Assembly (NCBI GenBank): GCA_966243015.1
Contig: CBIMES010000001.1
Location: forward strand, 50,598-114,597
Reading direction: 5' to 3'
DNA length: 64,000 bases
Origin: an uncultured bacterium
GTDB lineage: Bacteria; Patescibacteriota; Minisyncoccia; Phycocordibacterales; UBA6065
Shown here: in pieces, positions 3,667 through 57,838 of the stretch
Position numbering within the stretch: the stretch's first letter is position 1
How the letters are laid out: the number at the start of each line of letters is the position of its first letter
The notes under the pieces: model-generated
What the model was told of the DNA's origin: nothing
Seen by the model: only the letters and a program-made list of their open reading frames with translations
The model's database searches: none
Position numbers and translations under genes: made by a program

Positions 3667-4146
3667 ATGAAATCGATCAAACAAATGGAGATGCTGGGCT
3701 CGGTCGCGCCTGATTTCACCCTTCCCGACGAGGACGGGCAGATGCGCTCGCTTTCGGACTATCGCGGCCAGAACGTAATCCTGTACTTCTACCCCAAGGA
3801 TTTTACGTCAGGCTGCAGTCTCGAGGCCCAGGAGTTCCGCGACCACGAGTACGAGATAGGCGATCTTAATGCCGTGGTTCTGGGCGTGAGCCCCGACGAC
3901 AGCGACTCGCACAAGGAGTTCTGCCAACAGCAGGGCCTCAACTTCACCTTGCTCGCCGACACGGAGGGCGAGGCTGCCCAGTTGTATGACGTGTGGCGTG
4001 AGAAGTCGGTGTTCGGCGTAAAGCACGCCGGCGTCGAGCGAACGACGTTCCTCATAGACGAGAAGGGCATCGTGCGAAAACTATACGCAAACGTGAAGCC
4101 CGCGGGCCACGCCGTCGCGGTTATCGAGGATCTACGAAAGCTCTAG
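3667..4146 (+). CDS. bcp: peroxiredoxin Bcp (thiol peroxidase)
   Basis: FYPKDFTSGCSLEAQEFRD matches the Bcp/AhpC-TSA peroxidatic cysteine motif; a divergent promoter region precedes it. Confidence 0.85.
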   Translation: MKSIKQMEMLGSVAPDFTLPDEDGQMRSLSDYRGQNVILYFYPKDFTSGCSLEAQEFRDHEYEIGDLNAVVLGVSPDDSDSHKEFCQQQGLNFTLLADTEGEAAQLYDVWREKSVFGVKHAGVERTTFLIDEKGIVRKLYANVKPAGHAVAVIEDLRKL

Positions 4147-4398
4147 GGCATCTTCGGTTCGGGCAACCCTCTTTTCGAGTTTCGCGTGCTCTGCGCGCGA
4201 AACCTTGTTGAGGGCATGGTCGTCAATACGGTTCGAGAGAGCCGTGAATTGATAGTCCATCTTTGCCTCGAGCCTCTCTTCGAGCTTATCGATGCGCACA
4301 TCAAGTCGTGATATCTCCATGCGAAAGTCGCCCCGAAGCTCCTGAAAGCCTTTCTGGACCATGATGGCGAGCATGTCGATGGTAATGCGCGGACTCAT
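4132..4398 (-). CDS. small coiled-coil protein, paralog A of a 3-member family (88 aa)
   Basis: An internal ATG in the 329-aa track ORF gives MSPRITIDMLAIMV.. followed by a heptad-rich coiled coil. The first ~15 codons and upstream region are near-identical at nucleotide level to 11249..11521. A TACTAT hexamer lies 7 nt upstream of the ATG. Confidence 0.6.
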   Translation of the reverse strand: MSPRITIDMLAIMVQKGFQELRGDFRMEISRLDVRIDKLEERLEAKMDYQFTALSNRIDDHALNKVSRAEHAKLEKRVARTEDALELS

Positions 4399-4409
4399 GC
4401 CCAGATAGT

Positions 4410-4436
4410 AACATCGACCCGCTGAGGGTCGATGTT
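4410..4436 (-). promoter_or_regulatory. perfect 11-bp inverted repeat AACATCGACCC-N5-GGGTCGATGTT immediately upstream of the paralog A start
   Basis: Seen directly in the sequence. An identical stem with a different 5-nt spacer recurs upstream of paralog B. It lies between the putative -35 and -10 positions, so it is operator-like. Confidence 0.5.
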
Positions 4437-4490
4437 CACATTTTGATGTGCTTTTTATTTTGTCCGGCCAAAGGCCTTGTTTGGGCTTCC

Positions 4491-5066
4491 CTAGAATCCG
4501 AGCGAGAACGTCATGGCGCTCTCGGCCTTCTTCTCCCAGTCCTTTGTGTCGAGCTTCATCTCCTTGACTGCGAGGCCGTCCTTCCACTTGAGGCTTCCGT
4601 TCTTGAGGGCGTAATCGTAGATCTCCTTGGTGACCTTCACGTCGTCGGTGCAGTACTTGATGAGCTTGTCGAACTCTTTGTTCTTCCACCAGGTGATCGC
4701 CTCGAGTCCGTGACCTGACTTGCCGTATCCGAGGGTCGCCTCGGCGAGGGTGTCGAGCTTGATGCGGAAGCCGATGGCTTTCTTTACCTCCTTGAGGAGG
4801 TCGAGGCTCTTGATCTTCGTGAGATCGCCCGGATAGTACTTGTCGAGGAGAGGAATGTCGAAGTGGTCGCCGTTGAAGGTGATGAGCATGTCGGCGTTCT
4901 CGAGGATCGGCCAGAGCTTGCCGAAGTCCTCCTGGAAGAAGTGCTTGTACGAGTCGGTCTCGTACTCGTAGGTGCAGACCACGGAGATGTCGAGGTCCTT
5001 TGGGTCGTTTGATCCTACGTCCTGGAAGAGGTTTCGGGTTTCGATGTCGAAGATGACTTTGCGCAT
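4491..5066 (-). CDS. 3'-5' exonuclease, RNase H-like fold (PolB-exonuclease-domain-like, YprB-type)
   Basis: KVIFDIETRNLF, FNGDHFDIPLL and YCTDDVKVT match DEDD-type exonuclease motifs Exo I-III. Start is chosen at the internal MRKVIF (ATG at 5064-5066); the track ORF extends to 5129. Confidence 0.65.
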   Translation of the reverse strand: MRKVIFDIETRNLFQDVGSNDPKDLDISVVCTYEYETDSYKHFFQEDFGKLWPILENADMLITFNGDHFDIPLLDKYYPGDLTKIKSLDLLKEVKKAIGFRIKLDTLAEATLGYGKSGHGLEAITWWKNKEFDKLIKYCTDDVKVTKEIYDYALKNGSLKWKDGLAVKEMKLDTKDWEKKAESAMTFSLGF

Positions 5067-5127
5067 GGATTCTTTGGGCTTCTGTCTTACGGTGGTTAAT
5101 TTTATGGAAGCATTGTAGCATGAGGCC

Positions 5128-6531: not shown

Positions 6532-6825
6532 ATGGCAAAGAAACTTTACGTCGGTAATCTCTCGTACGGTACCACCTCTGAGACCCTCAAGGCTGGTTTC
6601 GAGGCAGCGGGTGCTGTTATCTCAGCATCTGTTCTCACCGACAAGATGACCGGCCGATCACGAGGCTTCGGCTTCGTCGAGATGGAGGACGCGGACGCTG
6701 ACAAGGCGATCGCTATGTTCGATGGTAAGAACTTCGAGGGCCGAGACATCAAGGTCAACGAGGCTCGCCCTATGGAGGAGCGACCACGACGCGACTTCAA
6801 CGGTCCAGCACGAAGGAGCTTCTAA
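6532..6825 (+). CDS. RNA-binding protein with RRM (RNP-1/RNP-2) domain
   Basis: LYVGNLSY (RNP-2) and RGFGFVEM (RNP-1) are present; an Arg-rich tail follows. Confidence 0.9.
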   Translation: MAKKLYVGNLSYGTTSETLKAGFEAAGAVISASVLTDKMTGRSRGFGFVEMEDADADKAIAMFDGKNFEGRDIKVNEARPMEERPRRDFNGPARRSF

Positions 6826-10641: not shown

Positions 10642-11256
10642 ATGAGACCCTTCATGAGCAAGCATTCGGAGAGGCGGAATTCTGAGTTTAGGCGGGTCGC
10701 TACGAGCTGGGCCATCGAATTTGGCCCTATCGTGGTCTTTTTTCTTACCGCAGAGTACGTTGGTCTTGTTAACGCCACGGGCCTTTTCGTCTTCCTGACG
10801 GCCCTTGCCCTTATCGCATCGTACTCGAAGGACCGTAGAATCGCCTTATTCCCGCTCCTCGCGGGCCTTTCAGTCATCATCTTTGGCTGTCTGACGGTGT
10901 TTCTGCACAACCCTCTCTATATCATCCTCAAGGATACGGTCTATAACGGCCTCTTTGCCGTGGCGATCGCCGTAGGTCTCTATGGATACGGGAGGCCAAT
11001 TCTGAAGGATCTCTTCAGCTCGCTGTTCCATATGACGGATAGGGGATGGATGATTCTTTCGAGGCGCTGGATGGTCATGTTCGTTTTCCTCACCGTCTCC
11101 AACGAGCTGGTGAGGCATCTCTTGGGTGCCGACGCCTGGGTCAATTACAAAATGGTTGCCACGTTCTCGACTATCGTATTCGGCCTCTATCAGATAACGC
11201 TCTCGAAGAGGGAGAGGATGCCTGACTCAAACAGGTGGGGGATGAATATCAAATAG
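10642..11256 (+). CDS. yciB: intracellular septation protein A family (YciB/IspZ-like) inner membrane protein
   Basis: Five TM helices and the overall YciB pattern. The start is chosen at the internal MRPFMSKH because TACAAT directly abuts the ATG; the upstream part of the track ORF is junk. Confidence 0.55.
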   Translation: MRPFMSKHSERRNSEFRRVATSWAIEFGPIVVFFLTAEYVGLVNATGLFVFLTALALIASYSKDRRIALFPLLAGLSVIIFGCLTVFLHNPLYIILKDTVYNGLFAVAIAVGLYGYGRPILKDLFSSLFHMTDRGWMILSRRWMVMFVFLTVSNELVRHLLGADAWVNYKMVATFSTIVFGLYQITLSKRERMPDSNRWGMNIK

Positions 11257-11521
11257 CCTCGGCCTCGAGGCATGATACGCGCGCGGCGAGGGCGTCATGC
11301 TCTTGCCGCGATATTTTATTGAGGGTGAGGTCGTCTATCTTTCCCTCGATGTTACCGATACGGTTCGAGAGGGAATCAAAGCGAAGGTCCATCTTTGTCT
11401 CAAGGCGAGATACCTCTCGCGACAGTTCCGCACGAAAGTCGTTTCGAAGGTTTGCCTCGAGCTCGTCGAATCTTTTCGTTACCATAATGGCGAGCATCTC
11501 GATGGTTATGCGCGGACTCAT
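11249..11521 (-). CDS. small coiled-coil protein, paralog B (90 aa)
   Basis: MSPRITIEMLAIMV.. with the same 5' nucleotide block and upstream palindrome as paralog A. Confidence 0.6.
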   Translation of the reverse strand: MSPRITIEMLAIMVTKRFDELEANLRNDFRAELSREVSRLETKMDLRFDSLSNRIGNIEGKIDDLTLNKISRQEHDALAARVSCLEAEAI

Positions 11522-11532
11522 GCCCAGATAGT

Positions 11533-11559
11533 AACATCGACCCGTTCAGGGTCGATGTT
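11533..11559 (-). promoter_or_regulatory. perfect 11-bp inverted repeat AACATCGACCC-N5-GGGTCGATGTT upstream of paralog B
   Basis: Stem identical to 4410..4436; spacer differs (GTTCA versus GCTGA). Confidence 0.5.
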
Positions 11560-11602
11560 CACATTTTTATCTTTGCTTTAGTCTTGCTTGCCACTCGGCC
11601 CG

Positions 11603-24136: not shown

Positions 24137-24355
24137 ATGACACCAGAACAAGAGCAGATTTTGAGGGAGGTTAAGCAGCTCGCGGAGGAGAACGCCGAGA
24201 CACTGAGGGTCATCAGGCGCTCGTATAGGATCGGCAACATCATGAGGGTTGTCTACTGGGTTTTCCTCATCGGCCTCTCGCTCGGCGCGCTCTATTTCAT
24301 CCAGCCGTACGTCGATACCGCAAAGGACGCGTACAGCGAACTCCTCTCTTTCTAA
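24137..24355 (+). CDS. small membrane protein (72 aa, C-terminal TM)
   Basis: TATATAAT lies 6 nt upstream of the ATG; coiled N-terminus plus TM (VVYWVFLIGLSLGALYFI); followed by element E1. Confidence 0.5.
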   Translation: MTPEQEQILREVKQLAEENAETLRVIRRSYRIGNIMRVVYWVFLIGLSLGALYFIQPYVDTAKDAYSELLSF

Positions 24356-24360
24356 TTAAT

Positions 24361-24467
24361 CACACAAAGCAAAAGTCCTCAGGAAACTAGCGAGCGCGAC
24401 CGGCGCGAGCTCGAGGAATTTCCCAGCAGGGAAATATCCGTGTTCCTGAGGACTTTTGCTTTGTGTG
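24361..24467. repeat. palindromic element E1: 25-bp perfect inverted repeat (CACACAAAGCAAAAGTCCTCAGGAA / TTCCTGAGGACTTTTGCTTTGTGTG) enclosing a 57-nt core
   Basis: Core ACTAGCGAGCGCGACCGGCGCGAGCTCGAGGAATTTCCCAGCAGGGAAATATCCGTG is 100% identical to E2. It abuts the 3' end of tRNA-Phe. A-tract/T-tract flanks give bidirectional-terminator geometry. Confidence 0.75.
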
Positions 24468-24538
24468 CTTGGACCCAGGTTCGAACTGGGGACCCTTCCC
24501 TCTTCAGGGGAATGCTCTACCAACTGAGCTATCCAAGC
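24466..24538 (-). tRNA. tRNA-Phe (anticodon GAA)
   Basis: Manual fold: acceptor GCTTGGA/TCCAAGC, D arm GCTC-AGTTGGTA-GAGC, anticodon loop CTGAAGA, T arm CCCAG-TTCGAAC-CTGGG, discriminator A. Confidence 0.9.
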
Positions 24539-24594
24539 GGTTCATATAATCTAAGGCTTTTTCGCCCAAATCGCAAGGGTCTCGATTAAACGGA

Positions 24595-24694
24595 ATAAGA
24601 AAAGGCCTTTGGAAGACTAGCGAGCGCGACCGGCGCGAGCTCGAGGAATTTCCCAGCAGGGAAATATCCGTGCTTCCAAAGGCCTTTTGCTTAT
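24595..24694. repeat. palindromic element E2: about 21-bp inverted repeat (ATAAGAAAAGGCCTTTGGAAG / CTTCCAAAGGCCTTTTGCTTAT) enclosing the same 57-nt core as E1
   Basis: Same core as E1. The stems differ from E1 at three positions, each with a compensating change in the partner arm. The right arm overlaps the hsp20 stop codon (24691-24693). Confidence 0.75.
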
Positions 24695-34078: not shown

Positions 34079-34090
34079 GTTTTGCGGTGG

Positions 34091-34125
34091 AAAGCCGGGG
34101 CCTTGCGGCCCCGGCTTTCATTTGC
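34091..34125 (+). terminator. rho-independent terminator AAAGCCGGGGCC-TTGC-GGCCCCGGCTTT plus T-run
   Basis: Follows the ABC ATPase stop. Confidence 0.7.
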
Positions 34126-34139
34126 TGTATAATCAATCT

Positions 34140-46083: not shown

Positions 46084-46359
46084 TTACGGGACCTTTTCCT
46101 CAAGCCTGACAATGCGTTTCTCGTGGTCCTGCCAGTTGCTTCGCGCGACGACGGTGAGGGATTCGAGGTTTCCTTCGACTCGGGTGAGTCTGGTGTCTAT
46201 GGTGTTGAGTTTCGTTTTAACCTCGGACATGTCGGTCTGAAGGTCATAGAGAGCGGGTTCAATGCTTGTCTTGAATTCGTGCATTTCAGCCTTGAATTCG
46301 TTGAATTCAACCTTGGTTACCATTCTCTCGTTGATATCGTCGAAACCGCGCTTCGTCAT
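46084..46359 (-). CDS. small coiled-coil protein, divergent paralog C of the 4132/11249 family
   Basis: MTKRGFDDINERMVTKVEFNEFKAEM.. aligns with MVTKRFDELEANLRNDFRAEL.. of paralog B. The start is uncertain because the frame stays open upstream. Confidence 0.45.
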   Translation of the reverse strand: MTKRGFDDINERMVTKVEFNEFKAEMHEFKTSIEPALYDLQTDMSEVKTKLNTIDTRLTRVEGNLESLTVVARSNWQDHEKRIVRLEEKVP

Positions 46360-46888
46360 GGTGGCGAGTTCGCCGACGGCATCGTCGACGATGACACGAA
46401 CCTCTCGTATCACCTCCTTGCTGATCTTTTTGCTGAGCTCTCTGCTCAGCTCGGTGCCAAAAGTCACGAGGTCTTTCCTCGTGATGGGGTCGCTGTCGCT
46501 TGTGTGGTGCTTTCTCCTCACGCCTGTAATTGTCGGGCTAAAGGCGATGAAATCCCATGAAATAAAAATCAAAGAGTGCTTTGGGCGAGAGTTTATGACT
46601 TTAGGCAAGCGGTACAAAAGAAAATGGCCGCACCTTGCGGTGCGGCCACGAGAGACCGGCTCGGCCTTTCGGTTGGCTTGGCAGACGTTCGCGTCGGGGG
46701 ACGCGCGGTGCGAGTGGTGGCCTGCATGTCGGCCGGCTCGTCCTCGGCTGCGTTGTTTCTGCCTGATTCGTCTTCCCGTGCTTGGCGCGGGGGGAGTACT
46801 CTGGAATCGCGTTGAATCGGTTTGCGGACCGGCTCGGTGAGCCGCGACCCTCAACCCCGACCGTTGCAAGCGGTCGGTTTGGCCAGTC

Positions 46889-46925
46889 TGCCCGGCGCCG
46901 GGCAGACTCGAGTTTTTCTTTGCCG
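46889..46925 (+). terminator. rho-independent terminator AGTCTGCCCGG-CG-CCGGGCAGACT plus GAGTTTTTCTTTG with no upstream CDS (end of candidate ncRNA)
   Basis: 10-11 bp GC stem plus T-tract on the + strand. Confidence 0.55.
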
Positions 46926-47042
46926 ACAGGCGAGGAACCGTTCCCGCATCTAGGCTACTCCCTGTGCGACGGGTGTCAATAAAGAAAGCGCCCCTTCTTG
47001 TCAATCTAGATGCGGAAAGGGAAATACACTATACTTCTCGGC

Positions 47043-52373: not shown

Positions 52374-52832
52374 ATGAAAAACGTACGTGTCCTTGCGGGA
52401 AAGGTTATTGGATCGCTCTTCGCACTCGCCCTTGTCTTGTCGGCTGTCGCGCCAACGGTCGCTTCGGCCCAGTTCACTCTTTTTCAGGGTGGTTCGGGAG
52501 GTTCTGGCGGATCGGTATCAAGTGGCTTCGCTGGAGGCGCGTGCGCCAATCTGAGGACGGGTGGCTTCGTCGGAGTGGTTGACTGCGTCATCATCTTTTT
52601 CAACTACTTCATCTACATCATCACCGCGCTCACCGTTGTTTACGTGGTCGTCGGTGCCTTCAGGCTCACGAACGAGGAGAAGAGGGAGGACGGCAAGCAG
52701 ATGATCTATCACGGCATCATTGGCCTCTTTATCATGTCGTCCATTTGGGGCCTTGTTAACATACTCGACAGTACCTTCAATTTGTCCGGCAGCTCGCCGA
52801 TGATTCCTCCGACCATAGAAAGGACTTTCTAG
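52374..52832 (+). CDS. VirB2/TrbC-like pilin candidate P1 (signal peptide plus two TM helices)
   Basis: Signal peptide ending ASAQ, Gly/Ser-rich segment with a Cys pair, helix-1 (VIIFFNYFIYIITALTVVYVVVGAF), charged loop NEEKREDGKQ, helix-2 (IYHGIIGLFIMSSIWGLVNIL). TATACT lies 9 nt upstream of the ATG at 52374. Confidence 0.6.
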   Translation: MKNVRVLAGKVIGSLFALALVLSAVAPTVASAQFTLFQGGSGGSGGSVSSGFAGGACANLRTGGFVGVVDCVIIFFNYFIYIITALTVVYVVVGAFRLTNEEKREDGKQMIYHGIIGLFIMSSIWGLVNILDSTFNLSGSSPMIPPTIERTF

Positions 52833-53116
52833 CCTCATTTTCCGGTCAATGCCCTCCCTGAGAGGGTATTGACTTTTTGTATTTTTATGATAAAAGGATA
52901 ACAAACAGTATCACAAGGAGGCGCGCGATTGCGTCTCACTGTTGTTCTTCGAAACCAACACCGTTTGTAACTATGAGCTCAACACCCAGTGGTGATGGTC
53001 AAAAGGATCCTGTCCTCGAGACCCACCTCACCAATAACTTCGTCAGAATCTTCTTTTTCCTCGTCCCTCGCCCCAAGTTTATGAAGGGCGAGAAGTGGAA
53101 AAATTTGTCCGGAGTC

Positions 53117-53902
53117 ATGAAGGCTAAATCCCTGGGCATATCCCTCAACAGGATTGCTGCTGCGATAGCCCTTCTTCTCCTTTGTGGAGCCTTCGCGTTT
53201 GTGTTTTACCTGGCTTGTCCCGTTCTCATCAAATGGGCTCGGGCCGCCGAGCAGTCCATTCACATTCCCGGTTCATCCGAGAGCGATGGTGTTCCCGTCG
53301 GCTCTGTGTCTCTCAAGGAATACGAGGAGGCGCTTCGTGCGAAGGAGGTTGCCGAGCAGTCGCTGATGGCCGCCATCCTTCGGGGCGACGGTCTCAAGGA
53401 CGAGGCCAACGTGCTTGCTGATCACAATGCCAAATTGCTCGATTCGGTCACCAGGCTTCAGGCCGACGCAAAGACGCCTCACTATGTCATTGTCCGTCCT
53501 GAGCAGCAGAAGCAGGAGCAGCCGCCCGCATCCATCGTGATTCAGGAACCGCTCCTGCCGCTCGCGCCGCCGGAGCCGATTCGCATCCCGTCAGGGCTTA
53601 TTCCCGTGACGGTATACGGGTCGTCCAACGAGTATGAGTATGGCTCGGGCGTTCGGTCGAGGCCGTTCTGCGTCAGCGAGGAGATAAAGCAGGGTAAGGT
53701 CCTCGTGTCGCGCAGGAAAGGTCTCATGATGGAGATTGAGACAGGTATCAGTCTTCGGAAGAATGATGTGCCGACGGTGGTGGCGGTTCCCGTCGAGTCA
53801 GATGTCATCGTGGTCCCTCGCGGAGCCAAGAAGGTTCGCTTCTACTACGAGGACACAGATTCGTCTGATCCGGCGCCGCTCAAGGTGAGGGTCATGGAGT
53901 AG
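53117..53902 (+). CDS. membrane-anchored hypothetical protein (signal anchor, coiled coil, Pro-rich linker, C-terminal beta domain)
   Basis: Start chosen at MKAKSLGISLN with GGAG 3 nt upstream; the track ORF starts at 52877. The C-terminal motif PRGAKKVRFYYED..LKVRVME resembles the C-terminus of the 57914..58465 protein. Confidence 0.5.
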   Translation: MKAKSLGISLNRIAAAIALLLLCGAFAFVFYLACPVLIKWARAAEQSIHIPGSSESDGVPVGSVSLKEYEEALRAKEVAEQSLMAAILRGDGLKDEANVLADHNAKLLDSVTRLQADAKTPHYVIVRPEQQKQEQPPASIVIQEPLLPLAPPEPIRIPSGLIPVTVYGSSNEYEYGSGVRSRPFCVSEEIKQGKVLVSRRKGLMMEIETGISLRKNDVPTVVAVPVESDVIVVPRGAKKVRFYYEDTDSSDPAPLKVRVME

Positions 53903-53983
53903 TGTCCCGTTGACTACAGGGCGCCGAGAAATTCTCGGCGCTTTTTTTATGGAAATAACTGAATATAGCTGCCTCAGGTATTT

Positions 53984-54532
53984 TTGATATACTTATACGC
54001 ATCTATGTTCAGCGACCCACGTCACAACCTTGAGCAACTCGGCATGTCGGACGGTGCGATCGTCGCCGACCTCGGATCAGGTTCGGGGTTCTATTCGATG
54101 GAGGCCGCGCGCATCGTCGCTCCTCTCGGCAAGGTGTATGCGGTCGACGTGCAGAAGGACATGCTGGAGAAACTCAAGCGCGAGGCTCAGAAAGTCCATA
54201 TTCGCAACATCGACATAGTCCACGGCGATCTCGAGCGCTTGGGCGGTACCAAGATTCGTGATGGCATCGTAGACGTGGTCATCGTGTCGAACGTGCTTTT
54301 CATGCTCGAGGACAAGAAGACTTTCCTTCAAGAGGTGCGTCGCATTCTCAAGGCCAAGGGCCGCATCCTCCTTATCGACTGGTCCGCGTCCTTCTCGCTC
54401 ATGGGCCCCCATCCCGAACACGTCGTCTACAAGGACAATGCCCTTATCATGCTCAAGGAGGCAGGTTTTTCCTTCGAGCGTGAGATCAGCGCTGGCGCGC
54501 ATCACTATGGTATAATTGCGCGAAAGCAATAA
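53984..54532 (+). CDS. class I SAM-dependent methyltransferase
   Basis: VADLGSGSGFY (motif I), YAVDVQ (motif II), VVIVSNVLFML (motif III). Confidence 0.8.
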   Translation: MIYLYASMFSDPRHNLEQLGMSDGAIVADLGSGSGFYSMEAARIVAPLGKVYAVDVQKDMLEKLKREAQKVHIRNIDIVHGDLERLGGTKIRDGIVDVVIVSNVLFMLEDKKTFLQEVRRILKAKGRILLIDWSASFSLMGPHPEHVVYKDNALIMLKEAGFSFEREISAGAHHYGIIARKQ

Positions 54533-54533
54533 C

Positions 54534-55826
54534 ATGACCCGATTCCAACTTATCTTTACGGGATTCCTCATCGCGGCTGCGGTTGTCGGTGCGATACTTT
54601 TCTCCATTCAGAGAAGCAAGGGTTCTACGGCTGCCATCCAGGTGACCATGTGGGGGACTATCGATGCAGAGACATTCGGCGACTTTCTTGGTAAGGCGTC
54701 CCTCACGAACCGCGATACGGTCAACATCGATTATGTCGCCAAGGATCGAACGACCTTCGAGACCGATCTTATCGCTGCCCTTGCTCGCGGTCAGGGTCCC
54801 GATATGATCCTCCTGCCTCAGGACCTTCTCGTGAAGCAACGTGACAAGTTCTACGTCGTGCCGTTCGAGAACTATTCTGAGCGCCTTTTCAGAGATTCGT
54901 TTGTCGAGGAGGGCGAGCTCTTCCTGACCCCCGAGGGTGTTATCGGCCTGCCATTCGCGGTCGATCCGATTGTTATGTACTGGAACAGGAACATTTTCTC
55001 GAACGCGAGCATCCCGCTTCCTCCGACTTCGTGGACCGAGCTCTACACCCTTGCGCCGAAGATCATACAGAAGGACGCCTCGGGCAACATAACTCAGGCG
55101 CTCGTCGCGTTCGGTTCTATGAACAATGTAAGCCATGCCAAAGATTTGGTCTCGCTTCTCTCGCTTCAGGCCGGTACTTCGATCGTCGCGCGTGACACTC
55201 AGCTTAATTATCTTCGAAGCACGTTCTCTGACCAGGGCAGCGGCCTTATCCCGGCAGAGCAGGCCGTTAATTTCTTCACGGAGTTCTCTGACCCTGTAAA
55301 GGCGTCGTACTCGTGGAACAGGTCTCTCGCCACGGACAGGAACATGTTCCTGTCCGGGAAACTCGCCTTGTACTTTGGCTATGCGAGCGAAATCGCTGGC
55401 ATCAGGCTCGCGAACCCCAACCTCAACTTCGACGTCGCGGCCGTCCCTCAGATTCCCGGAAAGAGGCTGACCTTCGGCAGCATGCAGGCGATAACCCTTC
55501 TCAAGTCGTCGAAGAATCTCGGCGCGGCCTATGTCGCCGCTCAGGTTCTTACGGGCAAGGCCCTTCAGGCCGAATGGGTCGCCTCGAGCGGTCTCCCGCC
55601 CGTGCGTCGCGACCTTCTCGCCACCACGCCTGGCAACGCCTACACCGCAGTCTTTTACGAGAGCGCCCTCATGTCCCGCGCATGGCTCGATCCTAACAGC
55701 GAGGCGACGAAAGCGACCTTCACCAAGCTCGTCGAGAGCGTGACCTCGGGCAGGGTCCGGGCGAGCGAGGCGGTACGAACCGCGAGCACGGAGATAGACG
55801 TGCTCCTTCAGCAGGCAAACATATGA
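54534..55826 (+). CDS. ABC-transporter substrate-binding protein (extracellular solute-binding family 1-like), orphan
   Basis: N-terminal signal anchor plus bilobed SBP pattern. No cognate permease or ATPase genes are adjacent. Confidence 0.6.
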   Translation: MTRFQLIFTGFLIAAAVVGAILFSIQRSKGSTAAIQVTMWGTIDAETFGDFLGKASLTNRDTVNIDYVAKDRTTFETDLIAALARGQGPDMILLPQDLLVKQRDKFYVVPFENYSERLFRDSFVEEGELFLTPEGVIGLPFAVDPIVMYWNRNIFSNASIPLPPTSWTELYTLAPKIIQKDASGNITQALVAFGSMNNVSHAKDLVSLLSLQAGTSIVARDTQLNYLRSTFSDQGSGLIPAEQAVNFFTEFSDPVKASYSWNRSLATDRNMFLSGKLALYFGYASEIAGIRLANPNLNFDVAAVPQIPGKRLTFGSMQAITLLKSSKNLGAAYVAAQVLTGKALQAEWVASSGLPPVRRDLLATTPGNAYTAVFYESALMSRAWLDPNSEATKATFTKLVESVTSGRVRASEAVRTASTEIDVLLQQANI

Positions 55827-56293
55827 AACGAATAATCATTTTACTCTCGATCTTCGCGCTTTTCGCCCTCTCGGCGCAATCCGCCCTTGCGCAGGGCAAT
55901 ACGGGATCGGGCTCCGGCGACCCAAAGAATGACAATTTCCAGATTGTGCCATGCACGGGCGTCACCAAGACTCAGCCTGACGGCACGGTGACGGGCAGCG
56001 AGTGTGACTTCAATGCGCTCATCGAGATGACGAACAGGGTCATCAAGTTCCTGCTTTACATGTCGATACCGTTCGTTCTCGCCATGACTATCTACACGGC
56101 TTTCCAGTTCCTGACCTCGAACGGCAATCCTGTCAAACTCGAGAAGGCCAAGCACATGCTTTGGTACGTCGGCGTTGGTCTGCTCTGGATCCTGGTCTCG
56201 TTCATCCTCGTCTACACGGTCCTCGACAATCTGCTGTCGCCAAACATCAAGAACGATTCGCAGGGAATCTGGAGGAGCTATTTCAACCCATAA
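55823..56293 (+). CDS. VirB2/TrbC-like pilin candidate P2
   Basis: Signal peptide ..SALAQG, Cys pair (PCTG..SECD), then two hydrophobic helices separated by SNGNPVKLEKAKH. Confidence 0.55.
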   Translation: MKRIIILLSIFALFALSAQSALAQGNTGSGSGDPKNDNFQIVPCTGVTKTQPDGTVTGSECDFNALIEMTNRVIKFLLYMSIPFVLAMTIYTAFQFLTSNGNPVKLEKAKHMLWYVGVGLLWILVSFILVYTVLDNLLSPNIKNDSQGIWRSYFNP

Positions 56294-56297
56294 TCAC

Positions 56298-56750
56298 ATG
56301 AAGCATCACATCATCGCCTTCGCAGTCATCTTCGCGGTCTCGGCACCCGCCCTCGTCGCGGCACAAACCGAGTATCGCTACGCAGAGGTGTCGACCACCA
56401 CGGGATTCGGCGGTACGAACAGGGGAGCTGCGTCGGTCGCCACGTCTTCGAGGAACAATATCACCGCCACCGCCAAGCTCGAGAATCCGCTCAAGGGAGT
56501 GAACAGCCTCGGCGACTTCGTCTACCTCGTCATCAATTTCGTATACAGCCTCAGCTATGCCGTCATAGCATTCTTTCTCATCCTCTCGGGCTTCAAGTTT
56601 GTCATGGCGCAGGGAAAGCCTGACGCTCTCGACAACGCCAAGGAGACCTTCAAGAACACCATTATCGGTGCGGTCATTCTCATCGGCGCGAACGTTATCA
56701 CGGAGGTCGTGAGAACAGTCATTAATCAGTTTGTAAGAACATCAATATAA
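56298..56750 (+). CDS. VirB2/TrbC-like pilin candidate P3
   Basis: Start at MKHHIIAFAVIFAVSAPALVAAQ; two helices separated by AQGKPDALDNAKE. Confidence 0.55.
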   Translation: MKHHIIAFAVIFAVSAPALVAAQTEYRYAEVSTTTGFGGTNRGAASVATSSRNNITATAKLENPLKGVNSLGDFVYLVINFVYSLSYAVIAFFLILSGFKFVMAQGKPDALDNAKETFKNTIIGAVILIGANVITEVVRTVINQFVRTSI

Positions 56751-56760
56751 AAACACAGCC

Positions 56761-57147
56761 ATGAAAAAGATACTTGTAGCAGGCTTCCTTGCCCTCACCG
56801 TGCTTACGGCGCCGGTCTTGGCCTCGGCTCAGGCAAAGGGTTCGATATCGTCGTGCGGTCAGCTTCAGACCGAGGGTGCGGCGGGTTTGGTGAAGTGCAT
56901 CATCGCCTTCTTTGATTACTTCGTCTACATTGTCACCGCCCTTGCCGTGGTCTACATCGTCCTCGGCGCGTTCAAGCTCCTGAACGAGGAGAAGAGGGAC
57001 GAGGGTAAGCAGACCATTTACTACGGCATTATCGGCCTCTTCGTCATGATGTCGATCTGGGGCTTCGTCAACATCCTTAACAACACCTTCAAGCTCGGCA
57101 CTTCGGCCGATCAGGTAAACAGGCCGACCCTCATCCCATCGCGATAG
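56761..57147 (+). CDS. VirB2/TrbC-like pilin candidate P4 (closest paralog of P1)
   Basis: CIIAFFDYFVYIVTALAVVYIVLGAFKLLNEEKRDEGKQTIYYGIIGLFVMMSIWGFVNIL is about 75% identical to the P1 core. Confidence 0.6.
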   Translation: MKKILVAGFLALTVLTAPVLASAQAKGSISSCGQLQTEGAAGLVKCIIAFFDYFVYIVTALAVVYIVLGAFKLLNEEKRDEGKQTIYYGIIGLFVMMSIWGFVNILNNTFKLGTSADQVNRPTLIPSR

Positions 57148-57221
57148 GTTATCCCCACGCTTTGTCGAAGCTTGGCTTTCCTTGGTATAATTGAGGGGCA
57201 TTATAAAATTTAGAACAACTC

Positions 57222-57584
57222 ATGAAAAAAATCGGATTCATCGCTGCATTGCTCGTCCTTCCATTCACGGCAGGCGCGCAGGGAGCAATCAATAACGTCT
57301 GGGACATCTTCAACTTCATCAACAGGATTCTCAACACGCTTCTCCCGCTCATCATCGCTGCTGCCGTCGTGTACTTCATCTACGGCATCGCGACCTACGT
57401 CATGTCGGGTAGCGACGACGCAAAGGCTGCCGCAAAGGATCGCATCATCTACGGCATCATCGGCCTCTTCGTAATGGTATCCGTATGGGGTCTCGTGAAC
57501 ATCCTCGTGAACACCTTCGGCATTAGCAACCAGACCGCTCCGGGAAACATCAACAATCAGCTCCCGAACGTCCCTACTAACTAG
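57222..57584 (+). CDS. VirB2/TrbC-like pilin candidate P5
   Basis: Signal peptide ..TAGAQG; helices separated by SGSDDAKAAAKDR; second helix IIYGIIGLFVMVSVWGLVNIL. Confidence 0.55.
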   Translation: MKKIGFIAALLVLPFTAGAQGAINNVWDIFNFINRILNTLLPLIIAAAVVYFIYGIATYVMSGSDDAKAAAKDRIIYGIIGLFVMVSVWGLVNILVNTFGISNQTAPGNINNQLPNVPTN

Positions 57585-57589
57585 TCCCC

Positions 57590-57838
57590 ATGAACGCTCT
57601 GGGTGTACCTCTTGTCCAGAAGTTCTTCGCTGTGGTGGTGAATCCGGCGATACGACTTCTCTTCGCGGCTGCCGTTGTGTACTTCGTCTACGGAGTCTTC
57701 AACTACGTCAGGCACTCAAGCGACGGCGACGCAAGGGCAGAGGGTGCCAATCACATCCTTTGGAGCACGATCGGCCTCTTCATCATGGTTTCCGTCTGGG
57801 GTATCATCGGCGTCCTCAGGAGCACGGTGGGTCAGTAG
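57590..57838 (+). CDS. VirB2/TrbC-like pilin candidate P6 (no obvious cleavable signal peptide)
   Basis: AAVVYFVYGVFNYV, then the loop SSDGDARAEGANH, then ILWSTIGLFIMVSVWGIIGVL. Same family as P5. Confidence 0.5.
   Translation: MNALGVPLVQKFFAVVVNPAIRLLFAAAVVYFVYGVFNYVRHSSDGDARAEGANHILWSTIGLFIMVSVWGIIGVLRSTVGQ

Follow-up and report, generated by a model that had tools for sequence, protein, structure and literature searches.

A conserved palindrome, a candidate operator, in the promoter spacer of two paralogous coiled-coil protein genes from an uncultured Patescibacteria bacterium

This work concerns a stretch of 64,000 nucleotides (nt) from an uncultured bacterium of the Patescibacteria (contig CBIMES010000001.1, positions 50,598 to 114,597), which we will refer to as the window, and in particular a perfect 27-bp palindrome that is found in it twice, each time a few nucleotides before one of two paralogous genes, A and B, for small coiled-coil proteins. 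This palindrome is a real and gene-specific cis control element, it occupies the spacer of a predicted leaderless promoter of the extended -10 type, and its arms are nearly invariant in related genomes that have otherwise diverged extensively. The interpretation that we favor, with a probability of roughly 0.4, is that it represents the operator of a putative dimeric regulator, which would have been acquired within the promoter spacer. The features of the two loci are as follows, with promoter positions numbered from the A of the ATG codon as +1 and protein lengths given in amino acids (aa).

4410..4436, palindrome A: perfect AACATCGACCC-N5-GGGTCGATGTT, 27 bp, positions -38..-12 of promoter A
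11533..11559, palindrome B: perfect repeat, followed on the + strand by CACATTTTTAT, a terminator-like tail
4405..4413, - strand, extended -10 of gene A: TGtTACTAT, from T-15 and G-14 to T-7, then a 6-nt gap (4399..4404) and the ATG
11528..11536, - strand, extended -10 of gene B: TGtTACTAT, then a 6-nt gap and the ATG
4437..4458, - strand, upstream A-rich element of gene A: ATAAAAAG-N6-AAAATGTG, -60..-39, the UP-element position
11560..11581, - strand, upstream A-rich element of gene B: CTAAAG-N5-ATAAAAATGTG, -60..-39
4132..4398, - strand, gene A: 88-aa coiled-coil protein of an unannotated Patescibacteria family (from translation)
11249..11521, - strand, gene B: 90-aa paralog of A (from translation)

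The palindrome and its position

A preliminary description of this DNA, made from the sequence alone, had reported an inverted repeat at 4410..4436 and 11533..11559 with identical stems and differing spacers, and this was confirmed in our analysis (spacers on the + strand GCTGA for A and GTTCA for B). A third copy was not found in the 64-kb window even when three mismatches were allowed, and 100 shuffles gave an expectation of 0.00 matches by chance. The palindrome ends 11 nt before each ATG, at the TACTAT hexamer as had been stated, and its last T is at the same time the first T of this hexamer. The hexamer occupies positions -12..-7 and the TG dinucleotide positions -15/-14, and the outer bases of the palindrome coincide with the AACA of an upstream GTGAACA motif and with the TGTT of the extended -10 box. 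The hairpin formed by palindrome A has a predicted energy of -17.5 kcal/mol as RNA (z about -6) and of -11.7 kcal/mol as DNA. The near-identity of the 5' regions of A and B that had been noted earlier also holds, and it extends over about 88 nt (4357..4444 and 11480..11567), reaching from AAAATGTG to codon 14; of its five mismatches, three are in the coding part and two in the loop. In a search against Rfam 15, only tRNAs reached the gathering score in the whole window, and the region 4300..4520 gave matches at the level of chance (E>1).

Conservation of the element at orthologous loci

The genes located upstream of A and B encode an RNase_H_2-type exonuclease (exo) and a TlyA-type S4/FtsJ methyltransferase (tlyA), respectively, and are unrelated to each other, as had been described. 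On the other side, the two genes are met by convergent genes that slightly overlap their 3' ends, one for a peroxiredoxin (bcp-like) at A and one for an IspA-family membrane protein (ispA) at B. Exact-protein look-ups identified both arrangements in related Paceibacterota metagenome genomes, the order exo, small gene and convergent bcp in L016 and L030 (within L044), and the order tlyA, small gene and convergent ispA in L018/L045, L031, L040, L041, and L043/L044 (L numbers are our labels for loci). The neighboring proteins are 75-89% identical to those of the window, whereas the small proteins are only 45-64% identical. A and B are therefore old and rapidly evolving paralogs at two fixed, syntenic positions, and not recent duplicates.

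The conservation of the palindrome was examined in eight distinct loci from five sources, in the alignment of which the only gap is a deletion of 1 nt at one locus. In these loci the succession of ATAAAG, 5 nt, ATAAAAATGTG, both arms, TA-n-TAT and, after 6 nt, the ATG is invariant or nearly so, the single mismatch to ATAAAAATGTG being present in window A (ATCAAAATGTG). The variable parts consist of the DNA further upstream, which could not be aligned, the 5-nt loop, which is different everywhere, position -10 within the hexamer and the sequence of the 6-nt gap. The outer 7 bp of the arms are invariant in all eight loci and the inner 4 bp in seven of them, so that full 11-bp arms are retained in 7/8. 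Pairing between the arms is complete, nine of the pairs being constant and two having changed on both sides, and no G-T pair or one-sided change was observed in any of the eight loci. As the 4-fold degenerate sites of the adjacent tlyA gene are only 48-63% identical between palindrome-bearing genomes, youth alone does not account for the conservation of the element, which is under strong purifying selection.

Both of the altered pairs are found in the palindrome of LLBY B (AACATCGCTCC-CCAG-GGAGCGATGTT), which is 26 nt long due to a spacer shorter by 1 nt and in which A-T has become C-G and C-G has become T-A, both changes being compensatory. The contig in question (LLBY010002566.1) holds a canonical 27-nt copy (LLBY A) together with this variant, and the predicted stability of the two is equal. 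In a separate observation, the loop of the B palindrome in the closest relative (L018, 2940..2964; GCTCA) corresponds, with one mismatch, to the reverse complement (GTTCA) of the loop of window B (TGAAC); this could reflect a hairpin-mediated inversion, although only 5 nt are involved and a chance match is possible. The comparison of these loci suggests that the palindrome arose in one genus-to-family-level clade of Paceibacterota, within a promoter spacer that is otherwise free to vary.

Pairing that is maintained by double changes is also compatible with a DNA cruciform, in which negative supercoiling would extrude the 11-bp arms, the TG/-12 edge would leave the duplex, and the promoter would be switched off without any dedicated protein. 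The repeat is perfect, its center of 4-5 nt is short, it is positioned exactly in the spacer where it overlaps the extended -10, its energy as a DNA hairpin is -11.7 kcal/mol, and the dyad was kept by double changes, with no G-T pair tolerated, in a genome that also holds the canonical form. Horwitz and Loeb (Science, 1988) are said to have found that cruciform extrusion represses a lac promoter engineered to contain a palindrome between its -35 and -10 sequences. However, at physiological superhelicity an 11-bp arm whose inner pairs are GC-rich has slow kinetics of extrusion, the nearly invariant inner arm would be left unexplained since free co-variation is expected, and we know of no natural precedent for a cruciform-gated promoter. 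In view of these considerations we regard this explanation as very unlikely.

It is extremely improbable that the palindrome lacks a function of its own and is only a by-product of gene conversion between the paralogs combined with perfection of a quasi-palindrome by template switching. Symmetric double changes can arise by template switching, the possible loop flip between L018 and window B (one mismatch) would be in accordance with it, and window A and B agree in the -10 box, in the gap and over the first 14 coding nt, which is suggestive of conversion. However, conversion can account for identity within a genome but not for identity over five sources in which loops and flanks are scrambled and the 4-fold sites are 48-63% identical, and the S136 and LLBY paralog pairs differ in the 6-nt gap and in the N-terminal coding sequence, yet keep the arms or their pairing.

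The preliminary description had considered the shared 5' block to be under separate constraint or a result of gene conversion. For the promoter and the palindrome, constraint is indicated by the fact that the same identity holds across genomes, whereas the coding part of the block is conserved mostly as amino acids. Among the codons that specify identical residues in A and B, 7/10 are the same within codons 1-14 versus 20/36 elsewhere (9/17 in the shared segment of the S136 pair), and hence the synonymous sites are not clearly better kept at the 5' end, contrary to the view that this coding end is conserved at the nucleotide level. Constraint on the nucleotides themselves is demonstrated for the non-coding part and for no more than the first few codons, and further into the open reading frame (ORF) it is mostly the amino acid sequence that is conserved. 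A recent gene conversion of the coding 5' end was rejected, as its synonymous sites are not unusually identical. An old conversion is nevertheless suggested by a number of sequence characteristics: the window pair alone has in common the exact hexamer (TACTAT), the sequence of the 6-nt gap (CTGGGC) and the 14 nt with which the coding sequence begins, and the N-terminus of window A is of the short B-lineage form (MSPRITI.., as in L018) rather than the long MSEK[IV]TL.. form of other A-locus genes, while its C-terminal half carries A-locus residues. The conversion would have proceeded from B to A in the lineage of the window.

A predicted leaderless promoter of the extended -10 type

The sequence TGtTA[CAG]TAT is present in all eight palindrome loci, and the gap that follows it is always 6 nt long, although its sequence is variable. 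In most of a larger set of about 23 loci of the same gene family, from several Patescibacteria lineages, the start codon follows (TGn)TAnnnT at a distance of exactly 6 (rarely 7) nt. The TGnTAnnnT form was also observed in L041, L042, L046, L005, L006, L008, L010, L012, and L014, and the arrangement TGnTAnnnT, 6 nt and start occurs without any palindrome in the closer relatives L041, L042, and L046, at the gene for a 182-aa family-like protein in L044, and in L005-L015, among which L009, L011, and L013 are ambiguous, the hosts of L005-L015 being Saccharibacteria, Taylorbacteria, Nomurabacteria, and other Patescibacteria. These results provide good comparative evidence that the mRNAs of A and B are leaderless and would start at the A of the ATG (positions 4398 and 11521). 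Within the window, TAnnnT is similarly found 6 nt before the ATG of truB (5128), of the gene for a 2878-aa Peptidase_S74-containing protein (12711), of a 109-aa ORF (29803, - strand) and of a 283-aa ORF (34140), which suggests that leaderless transcription is common in this organism. A literature search for leaderless genes or for mapping of transcription starts in Patescibacteria, also known as the Candidate Phyla Radiation (CPR), found nothing specific.

The A-tract and GTG(A/G)A motif located upstream of the palindrome is also present in palindrome-free loci of the family; in L046 its distance is unchanged, whereas in L042 and L005 it is greater by about one helical turn. As this motif persists where the palindrome is absent, it is part of the promoter, in the position of an UP element, and not the U-tail of a terminator. 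The spacers of L041 and L046, which are of the same length, are unstructured upon folding, and no consistently placed inverted repeats were found upstream of more distant family members. In accordance with part of what had been proposed earlier, the palindrome is located in the operator position of a promoter whose TACTAT hexamer is 6 nt before the ATG, with a spacing that is kept throughout the family.

The second possibility raised in the preliminary description, an RNA hairpin that controls the transcript, is unlikely, because a transcript starting at the A of the ATG would leave the hairpin upstream of the mRNA. For the hairpin to be part of a 5' untranslated region, transcription would have to begin further upstream from a -10 box within ATAAAAAT, and the stem-loop would then form the 5' end of the mRNA, where it could stabilize it or control its translation. 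The sequence TAAAAA/AAAAAT is indeed located 7-8 nt before the first base of the arm, so that a transcript could begin at the hairpin. However, such a promoter would have no conserved -35 sequence, ATAAAG being too close to serve as one, and the interval from the hairpin to the AUG contains no Shine-Dalgarno sequence. Further, the fixed distance of 6 nt between TAnnnT and the start is kept in loci without the hairpin or the upstream box, which is predicted for a leaderless -10 but not for a 5' untranslated region. This arrangement has, in our view, little probability.

Association of the element with the small genes

In the closest relative (L045, 17100..17260, contig from SRR33465453, with a tlyA 89% identical to that of the window), the stop codon of exo is 3 nt from that of the convergent bcp gene, and gene A and its palindrome are both missing. 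Gene A and the palindrome together thus constitute a presence/absence polymorphism within the clade. In L041 and L046, on the other hand, tlyA, the small gene, ispA, the spacing and the promoter are all kept and the hairpin is absent. As the exo/bcp pair of L045 and the tlyA/ispA pair of L041 and L046 lack the hairpin, the neighboring genes do not need this element, and in one clade it travels with the promoter of the small gene. In the window and in two 20-kb related contigs, the palindrome with its upstream motif was found only before these genes. A dispersed repeat, REP-like (repetitive extragenic palindrome) or MITE-like (miniature inverted-repeat transposable element), could therefore be rejected, as there are two copies in the 64 kb, each related contig of 20 kb has one or two, and all of them precede genes of this family.

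A metagenome scan identified 20 loci containing the palindrome, of which only two (L030 and L031) had the promoter context. The others were rejected as chance matches or matches in another context, about ten of them being mutL sequence coding for DIDPxxVDVNVHPTK and the rest unrelated repeats. The exact palindrome of the mutL genes (ACATCGACCC-N5-GGGTCGATGT; among L020..L039, encoding ..DIDPxxVDVNVHPTKxEVRF..) is found in unrelated bacteria, is driven by the coding sequence and is not related to the element described here; in L022/L036/L039 and in L025/L027 the palindrome is part of other repeated non-coding contexts. A scan of representative-genome contigs for the exact palindrome gave 0 matches, so that the species representatives do not include the source lineage, and 0 matches were also obtained when viral contigs were scanned for the pattern of flank plus arm.

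The link to the small gene is of importance in considering whether the hairpin could be a terminator or insulator that has become fused to the promoter. On the - strand it would stop read-through from exo or tlyA, and on the + strand, together with UUCACAUUUUUAU, it would stop the antisense transcripts of the convergent bcp and ispA genes. In favor of such a role, the RNA hairpin is stable (-17.5 kcal/mol, z about -6), its pairing survives two double changes and its loop length is free. The + strand of B is flagged as terminator-like (tail CACATTTTTA), the tail CACATTTTTAT is present in 7/8 loci, and bcp and ispA, which overlap the 3' ends of A and B, have no room for a terminator of their own. 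A canonical terminator also abuts another leaderless promoter in the window:

34079..34139, + strand, terminator-promoter fusion: AAAGCCGGGGCC-TTGC-GGCCCCGGCTTT directly abutting TGTATAAT, 6 nt and the ATG of gene 34140

This indicates that fusions of a terminator with a leaderless promoter occur at unrelated genes in this genome. However, the arms of our element are invariant in 7/8 loci despite nearly saturated neutral sites, whereas structural stems usually drift via compensation and G-U steps. The - strand has no U-run after the stem (ACUAUCUGGGC; ACTATCTGGGC), the U-run of the + strand is offset from the stem by 4 nt and copy A fails the terminator scan, and the A-tract that would serve as this U-run is also present in the hairpin-free loci L046, L042, and L005. 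A terminator should be retained independently of the gene downstream, but this hairpin has been lost with gene A in L045 and is absent after tlyA in L041 and L046. Lastly, although about 35 nt of unconstrained intergenic DNA upstream could host a terminator, the hairpin is locked in the promoter spacer. Based upon these observations, a terminator or insulator is the main alternative to an operator, a possible but somewhat unlikely explanation.

A putative operator in the promoter spacer

The proposal that the palindrome is an operator can be described as follows. Each copy is a compact four-part unit of promoter and gene, comprised of phased A-tracts with GTGAACA (-60..-34), TGnTAnTAT (-15..-7), the fixed 6-nt gap and the ATG. 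Its promoter spacer has become a perfect 27-bp palindrome (-38..-12) that reuses the AACA upstream as well as the TG and the first T of the extended -10, and this palindrome would serve as the operator for a putative dimeric DNA-binding regulator. Once bound, such a regulator would occupy both the -35 region and the TG/-10 edge, turning off the two coiled-coil genes together as a small regulon. Selection holds the element identical across genomes, and in the lineage of the window the old B-to-A conversion would in addition have carried over the -10 box, the 6-nt gap and the beginning of the ORF.

We rank this proposal first due to the position of the palindrome in the spacer over the TG/-10 edge, its invariant arms with a free center, the lack of one-sided or wobble changes in the arms, its exclusive tie to two paralogs, and its origin in a spacer on which sister lineages show no constraint. 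The dyad (-38..-12) overlaps the core promoter at T-15, G-14, and T-12, and the half-sites are conserved (outer part in 8/8 loci, inner part in 7/8) around a center that is different in all loci. Such graded conservation, in which the outer 7 bp exceed the inner 4 bp and these exceed the free center, is typical of the operator of a dimer. As no G-T pair or one-sided change was observed in the arms, recognition of duplex DNA also provides a better fit than an RNA stem that is merely structural. Known motifs that resemble parts of the sequence, viz. a CRP-like site (TGTGA), an ECF-type -35 (GAAC), and a LexA box (GAAC-N4-GTTC), were rejected upon inspection, since none has a second half-site or a correctly spaced -10.

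A number of observations weigh against an operator. A scan of ten ORFs, some near the A locus and others from different parts of the window, gave no match to DNA-binding families. The spacing of the half-sites is not fixed, as the 26-bp palindrome of LLBY B is found beside the canonical 27-bp form, a pattern that fits a structural hairpin better than a rigid dimer, which should dislike changed spacing. On the outer 4 bp of each arm, promoter function imposes a constraint of its own, and part of the sequence specificity therefore has another cause. The + strand hairpin with CACATTTTTAT passes a simple terminator scan, and this genome does abut terminators to leaderless promoters (gene 34140). 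Lastly, the comparison is based upon five source genomes, and the paralogs within a genome may not be independent.

The coiled-coil protein family

The coordinates of A and B and their shared N-terminus (MSPRITI[DE]MLAIMV), as given in the preliminary description, were confirmed by translation. The two proteins exhibit 54% aa identity (BLASTP, E=1e-24). The third paralog that had been proposed at 46084..46359 is a genuine member of the family (E=1.4e-6 with the family hidden Markov model; 25% identity to B), but its start was probably placed too far downstream.

46084..46521, - strand, gene C: divergent, longer family member, 145 aa from the GTG at 46521, without the palindrome

The GTG at 46521 is most likely the start of gene C, rather than 46359, because the N-terminal motif of the family (ELATMTKRGF) lies upstream of 46359 and the start of a related protein in L044 matches this GTG. 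The latter (L044, 13825..14373) is a family-like protein of 182 aa whose gene has TATACT 6 nt before the ATG, whereas gene C has GACAAT 7 nt before the GTG. The members of this longer branch (145-182 aa; window 46084..46521 and L044 13825..14373) contain tandem RFD/MD heptad-like repeats, with a -10 box 6-7 nt before the start. The gene of this branch follows bipA in the LLBY contig, while an MFS-like gene is found at that place in the window and in L045.

An exhaustive profile search identified 138 cluster representatives of the family at E<=1e-3, which are mostly 85-120 aa long and match end to end; in contrast, a word-based homolog search with A alone retrieved only A itself. The family is characterized by an N-terminal signature ([KR][IV]TIDDLAxMVxxGF) and a C-terminal signature (NRIDDLALN[KR]xxRxEH..L..RV..IEKK or, in a shorter form, NRIDDLALNKxSRxEH..L..RV..E), and in the alignment these two motifs are separated by a repetitive coiled coil of variable length. 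All of its genomic matches are from Patescibacteria (Taylorbacteria, Saccharibacteria, Nomurabacteria, Paceibacterota) or from unclassified metagenome-assembled genomes. The AlphaFold2 model of protein A consists of a helix (7-62), a turn and a second helix (68-84), with a pLDDT (predicted local distance difference test) of 90.7, and the protein looks like an oligomerizing coiled coil and not like a classical DNA-binding fold. None of the Pfam or NCBIfam models reached its threshold with A or B (best scores 13-18 bits versus cut-offs of 27-32), Pfam searches over 29 family members gave only sporadic sub-threshold matches, and a Foldseek search against the PDB gave nothing at E<=0.001. As every Pfam match is below threshold, the suggestion that these proteins are XhlA-like is not upheld.

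Longer open frames at the two loci do not alter these gene assignments. A 329-aa ORF (4132..5121, - strand) in the frame of A was rejected as an open alternative frame of exo, since in B the corresponding frame is closed at 11545, and since the N-terminus typical of the family starts with the ATG. Antisense to B (11235..11581, + strand) are two ORFs of 94-98 aa, which mislead in the same manner as the 329-codon frame of A, and none of these frames is conserved in the other copy.

A further proposal is that the palindrome acts either via DNA structure, as a cruciform- or supercoiling-gated leaderless promoter, or as an autoregulatory site to which the coiled-coil protein itself binds. This pair of possibilities we consider quite improbable. 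If either were true, it would provide a defined transcriptional switch in Patescibacteria and a rare natural case of structure-gated promoter control, and such a switch would be attached to a fast-evolving, lineage-specific family of small proteins, whose paralogs share their N-termini within a genome.

Other features of the window

Several other features of the window were noted during this work. A GC-rich stretch of about 390 nt just upstream of gene C (46610..47009, - strand) contains no credible ORF, has a fold z-score of -2.45 and ends with a canonical terminator (46646..46615; GGCCGCACC-GCAA-GGTGCGGCC with a U-run). No Rfam family reached threshold in this stretch (best match BjrC68, 26.9 bits versus a cut-off of 39), nor was a tRNA or tmRNA found, and it may be an unannotated structured RNA. 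A 103-nt direct repeat (24355..24457 and 24585..24687; 81% identity) flanks a tRNA gene (24466..24538). The region 52576..57825 contains a cluster of paralogous short genes with a common segment of 76-205 nt (repeat families D4, D5, and D12) encoding the hydrophobic sequence ..YGIIGLF.M.S.WG.., and their products are probably small membrane or pilin-like proteins. Near the A locus, a 97-aa RRM_1 RNA-binding protein is encoded at 6532..6825 (+ strand), the synteny of which is kept in L016 and L045.

Significance of the element

To our knowledge, the Patescibacteria have very small genomes with few recognizable transcription factors, and almost no cis-regulatory elements have been defined in them. 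The present results provide a sharply delimited and conserved promoter module, consisting of the A-tract/GTGAACA element, the 27-bp palindrome, the extended -10 and a predicted leaderless start, which is tied to an unannotated and rapidly evolving coiled-coil family that is widespread in Patescibacteria. They also support, on comparative grounds, the use of leaderless extended -10 promoters in several Patescibacteria lineages. The palindrome could be used as a bait for a CPR regulator, by means of DNA pull-down or of phylogenetic profiling against palindrome-free relatives. If the element were only a terminator it would be an ordinary one. Current understanding is not overturned by these results.

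Comparison with known systems

Among known systems, the closest geometry is that of palindromic operators in promoter spacers, particularly those of the MerR type. As in these, a perfect dyad centered at about -25 extends over the -35 region and onto the upstream edge of the -10, with conserved half-sites and a free center, and it is common to a small set of genes. It differs from them in that no cognate regulator was found nearby and in that one variant has a spacing shorter by 1 bp and two symmetric swaps of inner pairs. Additionally, MerR promoters have a recognizable -35 hexamer at 19-20 bp, whereas the palindrome promoters described here are without one and appear to be of the leaderless extended -10 type.

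Leaderless mRNAs transcribed from -10 or extended -10 promoters have been described in Actinobacteria, Deinococcus, and others. The present genes are like them in that TGnTAnnnT ends 6 nt before the start, no Shine-Dalgarno sequence is present, and the geometry is conserved in orthologs and in several genes. Their setting in Patescibacteria is different, as are the A-tract/GTGAACA element and, in one clade, the palindrome in the spacer.

With bidirectional intrinsic terminators, the element shares an 11-bp GC-cored stem, an A-rich tract that reads as U-rich on the other strand, and a location downstream of a gene. It is unlike them in its invariant arms, in its U-run, which the - strand lacks and which on the + strand is separated from the stem by 4 nt, in being lost with the small gene, and in being missing from the equivalent intergenic regions of relatives.

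Of the known protein families, XhlA (PF10779), HSBP1 (PF06825), DUF16 (PF01519), and BMFP/YqiC resemble the present one in consisting of helical proteins of about 90 aa with heptad-like repeats, and they give sporadic sub-threshold matches; one JGI record is named 'BMFP domain-containing protein YqiC'. The family described here is distinguished from all of them by its own motifs (ITIDDLAxMVxxGF and NRIDDLALNKxSRxEH), by scores that are all below gathering and by the lack of a transmembrane segment in the model.

The element thus departs from an operator in one respect, the half-site spacing not being fixed, and from a terminator in one respect, its dependence upon the downstream gene. Overall it fits no named regulator family, and what it most resembles is a palindromic operator embedded in a predicted leaderless promoter of the extended -10 type.

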